A stretch of DNA of 32,000 nucleotides. It comes from Euryarchaeota archaeon SM23-78 (GTDB taxonomy: Archaea > Nanobdellota > Nanobdellia > Woesearchaeales > SM23-78). Where the stretch lies: the NCBI GenBank assembly GCA_001595785.1, contig LSSJ01000022.1, positions 21,957 to 53,956 on the forward strand. Direction: 5' to 3'. Positions 11,286-25,090 of this stretch are shown here, in pieces (position 1 is the first letter of the stretch; the number at the start of each line of letters is the position of its first letter). The translations under genes were made by a program, and so were the position numbers. The notes under the pieces are model-generated. The model ran no database searches and had not been told where the DNA came from. It saw only the letters and a list, made by a program, of their open reading frames with translations.

Positions 11286-12161
11286 TTACCACTTTGGAAT
11301 CTTACCATTCTGCACTGTAGACCAATATGTATCATTAATGACACCGTCAGAAATGGTCAAATACCATTTTTTAAGATATTCGGATTTCTTTCTAAGAACG
11401 GTATCACTATCAATCCTTCGCTTATAGTCATTACTATATAACAGTTCAACAGTGCCTGCAATATCCTCACCAATACTATGTGTACAATAGTTGTTAAAAA
11501 ATCCAGGAGGTGTTGAGGGGAGTGACTTCCATGTTGAGGAATTATAAACGGCATCAGGGTGAAGTGCCCTCCATTCTTCTTTAGGAATATCCTGAGTTAA
11601 TATATGGGCAAGTTCATGATGAAAACTTTTATTCTCAAAAATAGTTCCGAGAACAGCATGATGGTACCTGAGCCATTCATCCCTTCCGGCACTAATTGAC
11701 ATGCCACCCCAGAAAGTCACATAAGCAACAGGTGTTGCACCTTGCTTCATAATCTCTTCTGTACTATATGTATAAGCTCGCACAATCTCAACCTTTTGCA
11801 GATGCTTCTGAAGCAATTCCTTAGGATAATAGCGCATTGCTTCTTCTAACCCCTCCAAAGCCTTTAACGACATATACGGAGAATGAGATCTAAGGCCAGA
11901 TTTTTTGATGAGCGGAGGACTCGGTCTGCCAAATCCTACAAGAGTGGGTTCACTCCAAACATCTATCTCAAGATGATATGTATCTGAGAGAGTTTGCTCA
12001 AGCTGAGTTATATTATTTTCAATTTTTCCTCTTCTTAAGCAATCTTGGCTTGTTACATATAGATGAGGACCAAAGGCAAGTGCTCCGGCTAAAATTGTTC
12101 CAGTTATAATTTTTCCTTTATGCCTTTTTGCTTTTTGGAACATATCTTTTAATCTTAACAT
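11286..12161 (-). CDS. membrane-anchored HExxH zinc-metalloprotease-like protein
   Basis: I trimmed the start to the ATG at 12161 because the track ORF (to 12317) runs into tRNA-Tyr. It has an N-terminal TM segment (IITGTILAGALAFGP) and the motif FHHELAHILT. Confidence 0.6.
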   Translation of the reverse strand: MLRLKDMFQKAKRHKGKIITGTILAGALAFGPHLYVTSQDCLRRGKIENNITQLEQTLSDTYHLEIDVWSEPTLVGFGRPSPPLIKKSGLRSHSPYMSLKALEGLEEAMRYYPKELLQKHLQKVEIVRAYTYSTEEIMKQGATPVAYVTFWGGMSISAGRDEWLRYHHAVLGTIFENKSFHHELAHILTQDIPKEEWRALHPDAVYNSSTWKSLPSTPPGFFNNYCTHSIGEDIAGTVELLYSNDYKRRIDSDTVLRKKSEYLKKWYLTISDGVINDTYWSTVQNGKIPKW

Positions 12162-12236
12162 TTTAATATCCCCATTACAAGGGCAGTTTAACTTTATAAA
12201 TCTTTCGATTATTTTACTACTTACAAGAAGTGAAAG

Positions 12237-12358
12237 TCCCCGCGCCCGGATTTGAACCAGGAACCTTTCGGGAACAGCTGGTCGTGTATCATTTCTAGCC
12301 AGTCGGCTTCTCAACACGACATCTACAGCCGAACGCTCTGCCGTTGAGCTACGCGGGG
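12237..12358 (-). tRNA. tRNA-Tyr(GUA): tRNA-Tyr(GUA) with a ~50-nt anticodon-loop intron
   Basis: Minus strand reads CCCCGCG-TA-GCTC-AACGGCA-GAGC-G-TTCGG-CTGTAG[intron]CCGAA-AGGTT-CCTGG-TTCAAAT-CCGGG-CGCGGGG-A. C1-G72 is the archaeal/eukaryal Tyr identity pair. The intron contains a 7-bp helix GTCGTGT/ACACGAC. Confidence 0.85.
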
Positions 12359-20158: not shown

Positions 20159-20872
20159 ATGAACATCCTCCCAAATATTAAAATCATTGGCTTAGCCCTT
20201 TTCTTTGAAAAGCAAAAAATCCTTGTTATTGCAGACACTCATATTGGCTATGAAGAGGCTCTTAACAAGCAAGGGATTCTTATTCCTAGGTTGCAGTTCA
20301 AGGAAATTATGAAGAATTTGGAAGATGTTTTCAAAAATGTAAAGCCCAAGCTTATAGTAATGCTTGGCGATATAAAGCATGAGTTTGGCACTATTTCTAA
20401 GCAGGAGTGGCGTGATACTCTTAATTTGCTTGATTATCTGCTTGACAAGGCAAAAGTGGTTCTAATAAAAGGTAATCACGATACAATTCTGGGGCCTCTT
20501 GCTAGAAAAAAAGATTTAGAAATTAAAGACTATTTTGTTGTTGATAATTATTTATTTTGCCATGGCCATAAGATATTTGATGACCAGATAAAGGAATGGA
20601 AAAAGATAAAGACAATCATTATTGGTCATGAGCACCCGGCTATTGGTATAAGAGATGATGTAAGGGTTGAAAAATATAAGTGCTTTTTACTAGGAAAATA
20701 CAGAGGGAAAAATCTGATTGTGATGCCTAGCTTTAACTTTGTAACAGAAGGCACAGATGTGCTACAGGAAAAACTGTTAAGTCCTTTTATTAGTAATATT
20801 AATGAGTTTGAAGCATTTGTGTTAGGAGATAAAGTTTATAACTTTGGAAAGATAAACAAGTTTAGAGAATAA
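20159..20872 (+). CDS. metallophosphoesterase, archaeal SbcD/Mre11-related small phosphoesterase family
   Basis: Calcineurin-like motifs are present in order: VIADTHIG, GDIKHEF, GNHD, GHEH. The ~237-aa size fits the short SbcD-related family rather than Mre11. Confidence 0.75.
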   Translation: MNILPNIKIIGLALFFEKQKILVIADTHIGYEEALNKQGILIPRLQFKEIMKNLEDVFKNVKPKLIVMLGDIKHEFGTISKQEWRDTLNLLDYLLDKAKVVLIKGNHDTILGPLARKKDLEIKDYFVVDNYLFCHGHKIFDDQIKEWKKIKTIIIGHEHPAIGIRDDVRVEKYKCFLLGKYRGKNLIVMPSFNFVTEGTDVLQEKLLSPFISNINEFEAFVLGDKVYNFGKINKFRE

Positions 20873-20874
20873 GA

Positions 20875-21510
20875 TTATTTTTTCTCCTTCTGATACTCAA
20901 AGTAGGAATAAACAATCAAATAAAAGGCAAATGCTAGCACAGGAATAAGCACAAACCAAATCGAGTACTTGGGAAAAAAGATTCCTATGATAGCAACAAC
21001 CCCTGCAATCTTGAACAGGTTTGCACCTAGCTTATGAGTCTTATCCCAAACCTGGTCACTGCTCAGAGTCCAAGGAGTTCTGATGCCAATAAACCAGTTC
21101 CTCTTAGCCTTTTGTAATAATATGCCTATGTAAAAGAAGAGCAGGCCAAGAGCAGGAACCATTGCAATATTCATGTTGTATCTAACTCCTAAGTTCCAGA
21201 GAATAGTAAGCATGAAGATGTAGAAAAAGAACACAAATAATAATATAATGAACCAGTCAAAATACTTTCTGAACTTCTTAATATTAGCTTTTAAAGGGTC
21301 AATCACAGGAATAACAAGGAAGAGCAAGAACAAACTAAAAGATATAATCGGCATTAGGAACAAACCCCAGAACTTAGACATATAACCATCCACCTGGCCT
21401 TTAGCATTCCAGTGAGAAGCCATTTTGTCAGGCACATTAGGATAAGCCCAGAGCGCAATTATAAATGAAACTAGGATTATTATAATGATTACAATATTGG
21501 CTTTTCGCAT
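20875..21510 (-). CDS. SdpI/YhfL-family membrane protein (DUF1648 + SdpI)
   Basis: MASHWNAKGQVDGYMSKFWGL resembles DUF1648. IGIRTPWTLSSDQVWDKTHKL is the SdpI signature. Confidence 0.75.
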   Translation of the reverse strand: MRKANIVIIIIILVSFIIALWAYPNVPDKMASHWNAKGQVDGYMSKFWGLFLMPIISFSLFLLFLVIPVIDPLKANIKKFRKYFDWFIILLFVFFFYIFMLTILWNLGVRYNMNIAMVPALGLLFFYIGILLQKAKRNWFIGIRTPWTLSSDQVWDKTHKLGANLFKIAGVVAIIGIFFPKYSIWFVLIPVLAFAFYLIVYSYFEYQKEKK

Positions 21511-21573
21511 ATTCAGAGCTAAGCCTTGTTTTTTTATTAATCTTTCGAAAAAATAGAATCAGAATCCACAACC

Positions 21574-21583
21574 CTTATAAATA
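21574..21583 (+). promoter_or_regulatory. TATA-like box CTTATAAATA with SD GAGGTGG (21609-21615) serving the metK 5' relic
   Basis: The box lies about 40 nt upstream of the ATG at 21623. The SD is 7 nt upstream of that ATG. Confidence 0.4.
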
Positions 21584-21622
21584 CTGGTTCTTAAGAAAAG
21601 TTGAGTATGAGGTGGTTTTTTT

Positions 21623-21664
21623 ATGAGCAAATACTTTTTTACAAGTGAAAGCGTTACAGAAGGA
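21623..21664 (+). pseudogene. metK: relic 5' end of metK (14 codons, [14 protein letters not shown])
   Basis: [11 protein letters not shown] is 11/11 identical to residues 5-15 of the downstream MetK, but 6 of the 11 codons differ synonymously. Homology stops exactly before the GHPDK motif. The frame then reads 31 unrelated codons to a stop at 21760. Confidence 0.6.
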
Positions 21665-22541
21665 ACCACAATCTTATATAACCAATTTATAATGAAGCAA
21701 TCTTTTTTTATTAGAAATTATGAATTCCCACAAAGGAGGCTTAGTTTATGGGAATTATAATTTCAAAAAATAAAAAAAGAGAATGCTTATCTTTTATTAA
21801 ATCAAACTTCAACAAGATTTCTCAAAGACAAATGGCAAAGATTTTAGGCCTGGGTAAAACAAGTGTAAACAGATGGTCTAAAGAGTTGGATTTAAAATTT
21901 AAAAAACACACTGTAAATGAGAAATTCTTTGATAAATGGAGTGAAAAATCTGCTTATATCTTAGGGTTGATTTTTTCTGATGGAAATATTAATTATAATA
22001 CAAAAAAAGGGTATTGTGCTATTACAATAACTGCTGCTGAAAAAGATAAAGAACACTTAGAGAGAATTAGAAAACTTTTATCAAGTACAAAACCTCTTCT
22101 TTTCTCATCAAAGACAAAGTCTTATAGGTTAATAATAAACAGTAAATACATGTGCTTAAATTTATTGAAATTAGGACTTACTCCAAAAAAATCCTTAACT
22201 TTAGACTTTCCTACGATTCCAAAGAGTTTCTTAAAAGATTTTGTTCGTGGAGTTATTGATGGAGATGGAAATGTGAGGTATCTCTCTCGAAAAAGAAGCC
22301 CTTATTTTGAAATCACTGTTGCTTCTGGTTCAAAAAAATTTTGTGAAGGATTTGTAAAAGTCGTTAAAGATGCGATTGGTGTTGATGCGAATATAAGAAA
22401 AGCAAAAACAAACACATTTATAATTCAATATTCCTGTTCTAGAGGAGAAAAGCTTGCAAAATATATTTATTCTAACGCAACTATTTTCTTAAAAAGGAAA
22501 TATCTGCCATATAAAGAAAATGTATTAGGAGGTAAGTAAAA
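21665..22541 (+). mobile_element. free-standing homing-endonuclease gene insertion between the metK relic and the intact metK
   Basis: The interval is bounded by the end of relic homology (21664) and the metK ATG (22542). It contains only the LAGLIDADG ORF with its own SD (AGGAGG, 8-nt spacer). Confidence 0.55.
21748..22539 (+). CDS. LAGLIDADG (double-motif) homing endonuclease with an N-terminal HTH
   Basis: The two motifs are [12 protein letters not shown] and [12 protein letters not shown], about 100 aa apart. The N-terminal HTH is [24 protein letters not shown]. Confidence 0.85.
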
Positions 22542-23699
22542 ATGGATGGAAACTATTTTTTTACATCAGAAAGTGTAACTGAAGGTCACCCAGATAAAGT
22601 AGCAGACCAGGTCTCTGACGCAATCCTTGATGCAATGCTAAAAGATGACCCTAATTCAAGAGTAGCAGTTGAGTGCTTGACAAAAACAGGCTTTATTATT
22701 GCTGCTGGCGAGGTCACAACCAAGACTTATGTTGATATACAAGAAGTGGTTAGAAACACTCTTAAAGAGATTGGTTATGACAAGCCAGAGTATGGCTTTG
22801 ACTATAAGACCTGTGGGGTGCTTACCAGTATTTCTGAGCAAAGCCCTGACATAGCCCAAGGCGTGAATGAGACAAAAGAGCATGAGCAAGGAGCAGGCGA
22901 CCAAGGAATCATGTTTGGGTATGCATGCAAAGAAACACCTGAGCTTATGCCTTTACCAATAATGCTTGCTCATAAACTAACCATGAGATTAGCAGAGGCT
23001 AGGAAGAAGAAAGAACTAACCTTTCTAAGGCCTGATGGTAAGAGCCAAGTGACAGTGGAGTATGATGATGGAAAACCTGTAAGAGTGGGTGCTGTTGTGG
23101 TGAGCACCCACCATGACCCTGATATTAGTATAGAAGAATTAAGAAAACAAGTAAAAGAAAAAATCATTAAGCCTGTTTGTGGAGAATGGATTGATGACAA
23201 GACTAAGTTCTTTATTAACCCTACAGGCAGGTTTGTTATAGGAGGACCAGTGGCTGATAGCGGGCTTACAGGAAGAAAAATAATTGTAGATACTTATGGA
23301 GGAGTGGGTAGTCATGGAGGAGGCTGCTTCTCAGGCAAAGACCCAAGCAAGGTTGATAGGAGTGCTAGTTATATGGCTCGTTACATTGCAAAGAACATAG
23401 TAGCAGCAGGCTTAGCTGATAAGTGTGAGGTGCAATTAGGCTATGCTATTGGAATAGCAGAGCCTGTGAGTGTACTTGTTGATACCTTTGGAACAGGAAA
23501 GATTGATAATGGTAAATTATTAGAGCTAATAAAGAAAAACTTTCCTCTTAAACCAGCAGAGATGATAAAGTATCTTAAACTAAAAAGACCCATATATAAG
23601 AAGACTGCTTGTTACGGGCATTTTGGCAGGCAAGAACCAGAGTTTACCTGGGAGAAGACAGATAAGGCAGAGGTTTTGAAAAAGGAAGCTTTTTCTTAA
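22542..23699 (+). CDS. metK: S-adenosylmethionine synthetase, bacterial/eukaryal type
   Basis: [38 protein letters not shown], and [27 protein letters not shown]. It is full length at 385 aa. Its SD GGAGGT lies in the last codons of the endonuclease gene. Confidence 0.95.
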
Positions 23700-23719
23700 G
23701 CTTAGTATTTTAATTACTA

Positions 23720-25090
23720 TTAGCATTCAAAATTAGAAGGGAACATGTACTGGGTTGGGTCGCGTTGCTTTGCAATAACTAAAATTCCAGTTTCTTTATC
23801 CAAATAATAATCTCCCTTAGCTCTTCCATCCTCAAGCTCTGTGTAAGGTTTTAGTCCAATGCTCTTGAGTTTTTCTTCTCTTTCTTCATAGGTATCATAT
23901 TCTGGGCTTATAATCACATTTTTACCTATTTTTACATTCTTATCTAGAATAACTTTTTCTAATTTTGAACCCTCACCTATATGAGTAATATTTTCATGTC
24001 TGAGCTTATTGTTAAAGAACTCATTCCTATCAGCACCAAGCAATATGCATTCTTTTAATTCAGAGTCTTTCTCCATAAGGGTTTGGTATCCTATAACTGA
24101 ATTCTTTACAACGCATCCTTTTGAAATCTCATCTCCTGGGCTCAGAATACAACTTTGCACAGAGGCACCGCTTGCTATTCTTGGTCCTGGAAGATATCTT
24201 ACAGATGTTCTTATTCTATTAGCTATTAGGTCTAGAGGTGCTCTTTCTTTTGTGAAATCCATGTTGCAGTTAAAATAATCTACAAGTTTACCTACGTCCC
24301 GCCAATAACCATTAAATACATATGCATAAAGCCTACCTTTATTCTCCTTTATGCTAGGAATAATCTCTTTTCCAAAATCATCTCCTGGGTGTTGTTTTAA
24401 AAAAACTTCGAGTTGGTCATGGAAAAAGATGTAGTTACCCATAGATGCAAGGAAATCCAGGTTTGAATTTGAGTTTGGGATTCCGAGGCGGCTTTTTATT
24501 ATTGGGGTTAGTCTGAATTCTTCTATAACCTCCTTTTCTTTAGGTTTTTCAGCAAAGGCTATTATTCTTCCTTGTTCATCTATTTTTATAAGACCAAAGT
24601 CATGAGCCTTGCTTTCTGGAACCAGGTTTGCCATGATGGTTATGTCTGCATTATTACTAATATGTTGTTTTATAGCAGCCTCATAGTTCATACAATACAC
24701 ATGGTCTCCTCCGAGTACAAACACAATTCTTGGATTATATCTATTAATGCGGTGAAGGTTTTTCCTTACAGAATCAGCTGTGCCTTCAAAACGTACAATT
24801 TTTTTTCCTTCTTCATAAGGGTGTACAATCTCTAGTTTTCTATCAATACCATCAAATCCCCATATACTTCCATCTCTTAGATGTCCTATCAATGATCTTG
24901 GTTCGAATTGTGCTGCTATTATGGTGCTGGGTATTCCTGTATTAGTTATGTTGGATACTACATAATCTATAATCCTGTAAATCCCGTGAATTCCTATTGC
25001 TGGCTTAGTCCTCTCTTTTGTAAGTATCTCTAATCTTGTTCCTCTTCCTCCCGCCATTACAAAGGCCAGTACATATTCATCTAGAGCCAT
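23720..25090 (-). CDS. GlgC-like sugar-1-phosphate nucleotidylyltransferase (ADP-glucose pyrophosphorylase family)
   Basis: AFVMAGGRGTRLEILTKERTKPAIGIHGIYRIIDYVVSN matches the GlgC N-terminus. A left-handed beta-helix-like C-terminal half and an extension follow. Confidence 0.8.
   Translation of the reverse strand: MALDEYVLAFVMAGGRGTRLEILTKERTKPAIGIHGIYRIIDYVVSNITNTGIPSTIIAAQFEPRSLIGHLRDGSIWGFDGIDRKLEIVHPYEEGKKIVRFEGTADSVRKNLHRINRYNPRIVFVLGGDHVYCMNYEAAIKQHISNNADITIMANLVPESKAHDFGLIKIDEQGRIIAFAEKPKEKEVIEEFRLTPIIKSRLGIPNSNSNLDFLASMGNYIFFHDQLEVFLKQHPGDDFGKEIIPSIKENKGRLYAYVFNGYWRDVGKLVDYFNCNMDFTKERAPLDLIANRIRTSVRYLPGPRIASGASVQSCILSPGDEISKGCVVKNSVIGYQTLMEKDSELKECILLGADRNEFFNNKLRHENITHIGEGSKLEKVILDKNVKIGKNVIISPEYDTYEEREEKLKSIGLKPYTELEDGRAKGDYYLDKETGILVIAKQRDPTQYMFPSNFEC

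Follow-up and report, generated by a model that had tools for sequence, protein, structure and literature searches.

Why should an essential gene be preceded by a second copy of its own first codons, and why should a gene for a homing endonuclease lie between the two? This question is raised by metK, which encodes S-adenosylmethionine (SAM) synthetase, in a 32,000-nucleotide stretch of contig LSSJ01000022.1 (positions 21,957 to 53,956 of the forward strand), hereafter the window, by whose first letter all coordinates without a locus number are counted. The contig belongs to a metagenome-assembled genome of a DPANN-type archaeon, and the database copy of the endonuclease bears the name of the same organism, Euryarchaeota archaeon SM23-78. 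The evidence reviewed below makes it probable that a homing-endonuclease element invaded the 5' end of metK in SM23-78, stranding the resident start of the gene and supplying a replacement. The element is a member of a widespread, previously undescribed family and not a one-off.

A duplicated metK start around an endonuclease gene

The anatomy of the locus, collected in Table 1, was worked out by direct reading of region 21300-24000 and from a listing of its open reading frames (ORFs). The duplicated segment, here termed the fresh relic, repeats MetK residues 5-15 at 11 of 11 positions, and 6 of the 11 codons differ, all of them synonymously (relic/metK: tac/tat, ttt/ttt, ttt/ttt, aca/aca, agt/tca, gaa/gaa, agc/agt, gtt/gta, aca/act, gaa/gaa, gga/ggt). 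Homology to metK then ends after GAA GG (21663/21664). An exact match of 11 residues, in the same orientation and directly upstream of the gene, cannot be due to chance, the probability of which over the whole window is about 1e-9 by an order-of-magnitude estimate. The relic has its own Shine-Dalgarno (SD) sequence and promoter-like box, and a TATA-like box is found at the same distance from the ATG of metK in L081 and L082, two related loci that are free of the endonuclease. The features of the window itself, together with the break of homology before the GHPDK codons, had been pointed out in an initial annotation made from the letters of the window, and reading the sequence confirms them. 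The same holds for the signals of the endonuclease gene, which has an SD of its own, whose last codons supply the SD of metK, and whose stop codon (TAA, 22537-22539) stands 2 nt before the metK ATG. An ending in ..GG(K), as produced by these last codons, is frequent at the C-terminus of the homologues of the endonuclease.

In one respect the initial annotation needs correction, as it placed nothing but the endonuclease gene between relic and metK. The interval also holds a TATA-like remnant and a second, decayed metK relic. The remnant, which was presumably brought in with the element, is similar to the promoter segment CAC..TTATATAA found ahead of metK or of the old relic in L081, L082 and L161. 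The old relic is in the same frame as the fresh one and out of frame with the endonuclease, and the 3' end of the ORF that starts at the fresh relic overlaps the start of the endonuclease gene by 13 nt. From left to right, the element thus comprises the old decayed relic, an SD, the gene for a 263-residue endonuclease of helix-turn-helix (HTH) and LAGLIDADG domains, a further SD within the last codons of that gene, and the replacement metK start.

Table 1. Features of the metK cassette in the window, and relics and interruptions in related loci
Feature	Position	Strand	Remarks
TATA-like box cttataaata, putative stranded promoter of the resident metK	21574..21583	+	40-49 nt before the relic ATG; function presumed
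SD GAGGTGG of the stranded resident metK start	21609..21615	+	read from sequence; 7 nt before ATG 21623
Fresh relic, resident metK codons 1 to 14/15	21623..21664	+	first part of the 45-codon ORF 21623-21760; homology stops at codon 15
Left junction and TATA-like remnant accacaatcttatataaccaatttata, presumably brought with the element	21665..21691	+	no metK homology
Old decayed metK relic MKQSFFIRNYEFPQ, 5' end of the element	21692..21733	+	ATG 21692; segment conserved in homologues
SD AGGAGG of the endonuclease gene	21734..21739	+	read from sequence; 8 nt before ATG 21748
Free-standing monomeric double-LAGLIDADG endonuclease gene, 263 aa	21748..22539	+	Pfam, AlphaFold2, Foldseek, homologues
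metK SD GGAGGT inside the last endonuclease codons (L-G-G-K; tta gga ggt aag)	22528..22533	+	read from sequence
Intact bacterial-type metK, 385 aa	22542..23699	+	TIGR01034, 618 bits
Predicted recognition region, resistant form (codons 14-23: GAA GGT CAC CCA GAT AAA GTA GCA GAC CAG)	22581..22610	+	predicted from relatives
Fresh relic of L002, MKEKKILT			homology stops at codon 8
Fresh relic of L019, ..NNFLFTS			homology stops at codon 9
Fresh relic of L006, MKNKYLFTSE			homology stops at codon 10
Fresh relic of L009, MAKITYFTSE			homology stops at codon 10
Fresh relic of L015, MKDYRFTSESVS			homology stops at codon 13
Fresh relic of L010			homology stops at codon 14
Fresh relic of L162			homology stops at nt 2 of codon 19
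Type a interruption of metK (one extra T)			L008, L013, L016, L021, L024, L027, L028; L131 (with an unrelated LAGLIDADG_2 gene)
Type b interruption of metK (insert after K19)	L023: 4385-4415		L001, L003, L006, L007, L010, L011, L018, L023, L026

The downstream metK is of the bacterial type (GHPDK), though the host is an archaeon. Its product contains all three S-AdoMet synthetase Pfam domains and exceeds the NCBIfam TIGR01034 cut-off of 309 bits twofold. Its first 20 codons or so would have arrived with the element.

The identity of the endonuclease as a double-motif LAGLIDADG protein, likewise part of the initial annotation, is borne out at every level at which it was examined. Pfam recognizes LAGLIDADG_3 in two stretches (E 1.4e-12) and Hom_end, and the acidic residues of both LAGLIDADG motifs (D78-G79 and D173-G174) are invariant in an alignment of 26 sequences. 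In the AlphaFold2 model (pLDDT 90.8, pTM 0.83), an N-terminal three-helix HTH bundle (residues 7-46) precedes two alpha-beta LAGLIDADG domains, and the tandem alpha-beta-beta-alpha-beta-beta-alpha fold is apparent from the model and from its Foldseek matches. In particular, a sequence search of the PDB returned as sole relative 2DCH, that is I-Tsp061I, the endonuclease of a Thermoproteus 16S-rRNA intron (E 4e-10); Foldseek also put 2dch first (E 2e-11), and its top matches are all LAGLIDADG proteins, including I-AniI, I-DmoI and PI-PfuI. By sequence and model the protein is a complete monomeric double-LAGLIDADG enzyme, for which cleavage activity is predicted. The pairwise ratio of nonsynonymous to synonymous substitution rates (dN/dS) of the endonuclease is about 0.1, with dS near saturation, and thus indicates purifying selection on a functional protein.

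The gene is free-standing, as it has its own SD and ATG, in agreement with the homing independent of both introns and inteins that was proposed from the outset. Pfam finds no Hint domain in the ORF, which is therefore not an intein; an intein origin is also ruled out by the separate ORF with its own stop codon. No bulge-helix-bulge (BHB) intron spans the ORF, and Rfam, whose sole match in the window is a tRNA at 12237-12358, recognizes no intron there and nothing else in 21500-22700. In P0076, the endonuclease reads through into MetK, as an in-frame endonuclease-MetK fusion or by loss of the stop codon.

Relics, gains and losses in related loci

The protein database holds at least 229 homologues of the endonuclease at 58-73% identity, almost all of them unnamed and the named ones assigned to Woesearchaeota or other DPANN archaea. 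A scan of one genome per species yielded 29 close loci (L001-L029), whose hosts are Woesearchaeota, Aenigmatarchaeota, Micrarchaeota, Nanoarchaeia and two bins labelled as bacteria of the candidate phyla radiation (CPR). The endonuclease gene is immediately followed by metK in 28 of the 28 genome loci with downstream sequence, and the same arrangement is present in five further loci, from metagenomes, that were fetched via individual proteins. More distant homologues (L030-L080; 31-43% identity), many of them from Bacillaceae and a few from Chloroflexi or CPR bacteria, do not lie beside metK.

When the N-terminus of each locus's own MetK was sought upstream of its endonuclease, fresh relics were recovered in the window and in seven other loci, that is in eight independent assemblies, each relic starting with an ATG behind an SD. 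Since the break points differ and the tails beyond them are unrelated, the relics go back to independent events, and the window's 45-codon ORF is no conserved independent gene. The initial annotation had named such a gene among the findings that would undo its reading.

In most loci of the window's sub-lineage, a segment of the form M..(S/P)FF(I/T)GN..FFP, usually in frame with the endonuclease, lies between the fresh relic and the endonuclease gene (examples are P0003, P0005 and P0108, and L006, L010, L017, L019, L165 and L166). In L161 and L165 this segment stands behind the motif ATTCCAATAGGAATATT...TTTATA, and an alignment (A2) places the same motif before metK in the empty sites L081 and L082. 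Because the segment follows a promoter motif of the metK type, and because it reads METIPFFTGN in L166, it is taken for an earlier metK relic that has decayed and now makes up the 5' end of the element. The motif ATTCCAATAGGAATATT itself is conserved and partly palindromic and precedes the metK TATA box (L081 2016-2050, L082 733-770, L161 2925-2965, and L165 upstream of 1501). A divergent HTH-CBS gene adjoins it in L081, L082 and L161, and the motif may serve as operator for a SAM-sensing regulator of metK. A second sub-lineage of the endonuclease (L011, L012, L013, L016, L021, L023 and L027) has a relic of another kind, GAAGGNCAYCC-NCATATTTA-TGTGAT, 45-85 nt before the endonuclease ATG; it encodes EGHP-x-YL-(C/S)-D in frame with the enzyme, and 7 of 7 loci show the same replacement of the nine bases at the centre of the presumed target.

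Alleles that lack the endonuclease, or have lost part of it, are found within the same group, so the endonuclease is not universally present without polymorphism, an outcome that the initial annotation had listed among those against its reading. A metagenome scan with the window MetK gave 80 loci without the window-type endonuclease, and in a neighbour-joining (NJ) tree several endonuclease-free MetKs fall among the endonuclease-bearing ones, most clearly those of L081 and L082 (71% identity). The two are true empty sites, as metK directly follows promoter and SD, and their neighbours include archaeal-type proteins, for example a probable ribosomal protein S17e, as read from the translations. 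Loss can be followed even within a strain. Ten contigs, drawn from several samples, encode a MetK identical to that of the window, and in the five places shown endonuclease sequence lies directly upstream. Two of the five are cut inside the endonuclease gene, and all match the window at 100% identity save for L170, a contig of a different sample, which is otherwise identical but has an in-frame deletion of 240 bp with 3 nt of microhomology. The deletion, equivalent to window 21927-22163, removes endonuclease residues of about 60-139, which make up the first LAGLIDADG domain. The endonuclease is also truncated in L029 and frameshifted in L028. In L131, an endonuclease of a different type (236-979; LAGLIDADG_2, 118 bits), without similarity to the window enzyme, lies 57 nt upstream of a metK of the frameshift type described below, which suggests that one endonuclease family replaced another; this gene also disqualifies L131 as an interrupted allele free of any endonuclease.

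The distances between endonucleases are only weakly correlated with those between the corresponding MetKs (r = 0.34; sequences 50-70% identical). In the NJ trees, which differ but have no bootstrap support, the window endonuclease groups with those of L002, L001 and L003, and the window MetK with those of L008, L020 and L017. Presence and absence at one fixed site are thus found together with decay and loss, a pattern of gain, decay and loss that is expected of a homing element and speaks against an indispensable cellular role.

The predicted target and the interruptions of metK

The metK alleles that lie behind an endonuclease differ from free ones in a short stretch of the coding sequence. 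For the comparison, 35 linked alleles were set against 61 endonuclease-free loci with at least 600 nt of upstream sequence; as the loci lack phylogenetic independence, the p-values serve as indications only. Within codons 17-20, metK is interrupted in 16 of the 28 genome loci behind an endonuclease, and overall in 17 of the 35 linked and none of the 61 free alleles (p = 1.5e-9). The consensus EGHPDK-x-C is kept in 0 of 18 uninterrupted linked alleles as compared with 23 of 61 free ones (p = 9e-4), and in 13 of 16 interrupted linked alleles. The uninterrupted linked alleles have A, S or M at position 21, or P, A or I at position 14, A at 15 or A at 17, and the window metK, which reads V20-A21, belongs to the class with A21. 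A cassette of this kind would reconstitute its own target and would therefore have to be made immune. The suggestion of the initial annotation that the incoming 5' end is resistant to cleavage agrees with these allele counts, by which the linked alleles would be cleavage-resistant as a class.

The target appears to be the coding sequence for EGHPDK-x-C in endonuclease-free metK, with GAAGGTCAYCCNGAYAAAATHTGTGAYCAG as consensus site. The clustering of the alterations, together with the relic of L162 that ends at the second nucleotide of the K19 codon, would place the recognition site on codons 14-22 and its centre near K19/I20. Of the original proposal of a cut at TEG/HPDK, the conserved coding site at the 5' end of metK is thus retained, and its centre is more likely to lie at K19 to C21; the end of the window relic at G15 then probably reflects resection.

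The interruptions are of two types (Table 1). In type a, found in eight loci, one extra T gives CAY CCY TGA CAA, and metK continues in the +1 frame. Its context, GAAGGN-CAY-CCY-UGA-C, resembles the +1 frameshift site of release factor 2 (RF2; prfB), in which a 3-nt spacer separates an SD-like element from a slippery codon and the UGA C behind it, so that these loci are candidates for programmed +1 frameshifting. The two loci binned as CPR bacteria are of type a, and neither has an insert of the second type.

In type b, found in nine loci, an insert of 21-36 nt after K19 brings in an immediate stop codon. Each of the nine inserts has exactly one BHB parse. In the central helix of 4 bp, the final base of the Pro17 codon and the Asp18 codon pair with GUCU, AUCU or GUCC; this helix is bounded by two bulges of 3 nt, AAA (that is, K19) and UGA, UUA, AAA or ACA, and abuts an inner hairpin of 4-11 bp. 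A cut between bulge residues 2 and 3 restores ...EGHPDK(V/I/M)(C/A)DQ in all nine, with insert lengths in all three phases. Furthermore, 36 of 36 central-helix pairs and 36 of 36 of the first four hairpin pairs are standard, with double-sided changes in each set. The motif is not strictly canonical, owing to an internal loop that offsets the outer helix GGUCAC:GUGACC. The type b inserts are thus candidate archaeal pre-mRNA BHB introns outside cbf5, situated at the presumed endonuclease target.

Other ways of expressing such genes were considered for type b. Ribosome hopping of the gene 60 type was rejected, since take-off and landing codons match in 2 of the 9 inserts as against a BHB parse in 9 of 9. 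A split MetK made of two polypeptides was also set aside as less economical than splicing; restart codons exist, but in inserts of the L001 type the first candidate start is followed by an in-frame UGA.

These mini-introns may be ORF-less descendants of an intron that once housed the endonuclease. It is about an even bet that the EGHPDK-x-C segment of metK in DPANN archaea, and perhaps in CPR bacteria, is the arena of an arms race with this LAGLIDADG family, in which immunity is gained by substitutions, BHB introns or +1 frameshifting. If the introns are genuine, they would be spliced by the tRNA splicing endonuclease, and metK would become the second archaeal protein-coding gene with BHB introns and the first with an evident selective reason for having them.

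Mechanism, rival explanations and known systems

The following course of events would lead to the locus as it stands. The enzyme would recognize the DNA for E14-G-H-P-D-K-(I/V)-C21 in an endonuclease-free metK and cut it near K19/I20, and the break would be repaired by copying an endonuclease-bearing allele. On the 3' side, the repair would be resolved through homology in the body of metK, while copying would run leftwards through the donor metK start, the endonuclease gene and the old relic to a 5' side joined without homology after variable resection. Such resection and joining would explain both the differing lengths of the relics and the window junction GAAGG/AACCACAATC. A single crossover with a circular intermediate is a possible alternative route to the same product. 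In either case, the resident promoter, SD and codons 1 to 14/15 would be left upstream as a pristine relic, with the endonuclease and a foreign, synonymously diverged metK start installed downstream, and the layout suggests that the stranded resident promoter serves all three ORFs. The new metK would escape further cutting through codons 20-21, where GTA GCA (V-A) replaces ATH TGY (I-C), as the allele statistics suggest; sister lineages would escape by substitutions in EGHPDK, by a one-base insertion that requires +1 frameshifting, or by a BHB mini-intron at K19.

Several points count against this account. Cleavage of metK by the endonuclease is predicted from sequence, and the non-homologous nature of the left junction is deduced from the anatomy. 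The window metK keeps a perfect EGHPDK, so its immunity would hang on two codons, with the statistics drawn from phylogenetically non-independent loci. Segment-wise identity gave, at this level of divergence, no signal of a mosaic, a co-conversion tract or a recombination breakpoint in the window MetK. In the metagenome MetK scan there was no near-isogenic empty site, the closest endonuclease-free metK being only 71% identical, nor was an empty site of the same strain found among the five places shown of the 10 contigs with an identical MetK. Finally, the endonuclease is about as conserved as MetK, the linkage is ancient and the metK SD lies in the C-terminal codons of the enzyme, all of which is compatible with partial domestication.

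Full domestication, whereby the endonuclease is no longer (or never was) mobile, is inherited vertically and serves metK as a DNA- or RNA-binding regulator, a maturase or a carrier of promoter and SD, is nevertheless improbable. It could draw on the dN/dS of about 0.1, on the linkage to metK in 28 of 28 loci across DPANN phyla, on the metK SD encoded by the last endonuclease codons and on the precedent of LAGLIDADG proteins that act as maturases, such as I-AniI and bI3, which are among the structural matches. The relics would then have to be leftovers of one ancient event, modified by local gene conversion, but their undecayed state, their seven break points and a peptide that is kept while its codons have diverged rule out a single ancient event. 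The apparent incongruence of the endonuclease and MetK trees (NJ), the endonuclease-free alleles inside the clade and the invariant catalytic Asp residues argue in the same direction, as does the deletion of the first catalytic domain in the very same strain with nothing else changed. Moreover, the clustering of alterations at one site of 8 codons in the linked alleles fits selection by a nuclease and not a regulatory function.

Two further explanations concern the duplication itself. Were the relic the first exon of metK, the endonuclease would reside in a giant BHB intron that reaches the downstream copy and is removed by the tRNA splicing endonuclease, and the internal start would be redundant. 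This is most unlikely, although an archaeal BHB intron encodes I-Tsp061I, the nearest relative by structure, nine related loci have genuine-looking BHB mini-introns at metK K19, the relic of L162 ends exactly at the position of the mini-intron 5' splice site, and the window holds an intron-bearing tRNA gene. A scan of 21600-21760 against 22400-22680 for such a long-range intron returned 8 weak BHB motifs as compared with 3.5 in shuffled sequences, which is chance level, and none of them yields a sensible MetK. The relic also lacks HPDK, the two copies are direct repeats and not complementary, the downstream copy, whose N-terminus is perfectly conserved, starts from an SD and ATG of its own, and the upstream copy is decayed in most loci. 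That the duplicated 5' end is an assembly artefact, namely a chimera of two strain variants, would suit the origin of the window from a metagenome-assembled genome, but is scarcely credible: several samples and pipelines (ENA, Logan, JGI) independently yielded the identical arrangement, at 100% identity over 3.4 kb, no shared repeat lies at the junction, and analogous relics occur in seven other assemblies. Invasion by a homing-endonuclease element thus remains the reading adopted here.

Homing without intron or intein is best known from the free-standing seg and mob endonucleases of T-even phages, which are GIY-YIG or HNH enzymes. Their genes lie beside the target, the enzymes cut a nearby site in the endonuclease-free allele, the genes spread by co-conversion, and the resident allele is protected by sequence differences. 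This intronless or collinear homing relies on homology on both sides and thus leaves no duplicated relic.

Closer to the metK locus are the mobile-ORF (mORF) gene hybrids of fungal mitochondria, described for atp6 of Allomyces macrogynus and for atp6, atp9, cox2 and nad3 of Glomus, in which a LAGLIDADG (or, in fungi, also GIY-YIG) ORF travels with a replacement gene end and the native segment is stranded nearby, the two copies encoding nearly the same peptide with synonymous differences that betray a horizontal origin (PMC3630166). The combination of an endonuclease, a replacement terminal segment and a stranded native one is found in the window and in the seven other relic-bearing loci, at the 5' end of the gene. 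In the fungi it is the 3' end that is replaced, and the native copy lies downstream (PMC3630166), so that the metK cassette is the mirror image. As it replaces the 5' end, the metK element has to supply an SD and a start codon, and the stranded copy keeps the promoter, which would now drive the whole cassette. The metK case also differs in its setting, an archaeal chromosome and the gene of an essential cytosolic enzyme.

A second parallel is offered by MobA and gene 60 of phage T4, where a free-standing endonuclease sits in an essential gene next to a diverged copy of flanking coding sequence (HomR), an untranslated insert in the coding sequence blocks self-cleavage and is bypassed in expression, and the endonuclease is subject to decay, to loss or to replacement by other families (bioRxiv 10.1101/2022.08.31.505936), as it is here in L131, L028, L029 and L170. 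MobA, however, is an HNH nickase, its target gene is split into two polypeptides and the insert is skipped by ribosome hopping (bioRxiv 10.1101/2022.08.31.505936), whereas the metK enzyme is of the LAGLIDADG type, the gene is whole, and the inserts of sister loci are putative BHB introns or a +1 site, neither of which is present in the window. In sequence and fold, the closest known enzymes are the archaeal rRNA-intron endonucleases I-Tsp061I and I-DmoI, which are also monomeric and double-motif. In contrast to the metK enzyme, which is free-standing beside a protein gene, they are encoded within BHB introns of rRNA genes and have no N-terminal HTH. The mini-introns, in turn, share with the cbf5 BHB intron the 4-bp helix, the two 3-nt bulges and the cut between bulge residues 2 and 3 (PMC2738675), and differ from it in their location in metK of DPANN archaea at the presumed endonuclease target, and in the offset outer helix. 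A 2025 paper still cites only cbf5 for introns within the protein-coding genes of archaea. As the initial annotation had supposed for archaeal metK, full-text literature searches gave no paper that links metK or SAM synthetase with a homing endonuclease, nor any that links it with a BHB intron.

The colonization of essential genes by an endonuclease that needs neither intron nor intein and brings a replacement gene end, so far known for 3' ends in fungal mitochondria, would thus extend to archaeal chromosomes and to the 5' end, where at metK the element would hijack the resident promoter. With at least 229 members at a single site, the family serves as a natural experiment in ways of protecting a reconstituted target, and it provides a candidate new meganuclease scaffold with a defined candidate target of 22-30 bp. 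Nine candidate mRNA BHB introns, with only cbf5 confirmed so far, and eight candidate +1 frameshift sites come with it, and the family would explain why metK is called truncated or split in many DPANN genomes. These introns and frameshift sites, comparative by-products that look like immunity against the endonuclease, could matter more than the window itself.

As to the surroundings of the cassette, a metallophosphoesterase gene lies two genes upstream in the window (20159-20872), in L161 and in L162. Synteny is only partly kept, because the intervening gene is SdpI/DUF1648 in the window and HTH-CBS in L161 and L162. Farther upstream, ARAGORN reports no tRNA in the window, and the tRNA recognized there by Rfam is on the minus strand and spans 122 nt, which implies an intron of about 50 nt; the match overlaps the start of a mechanically called ORF (11286-12317).

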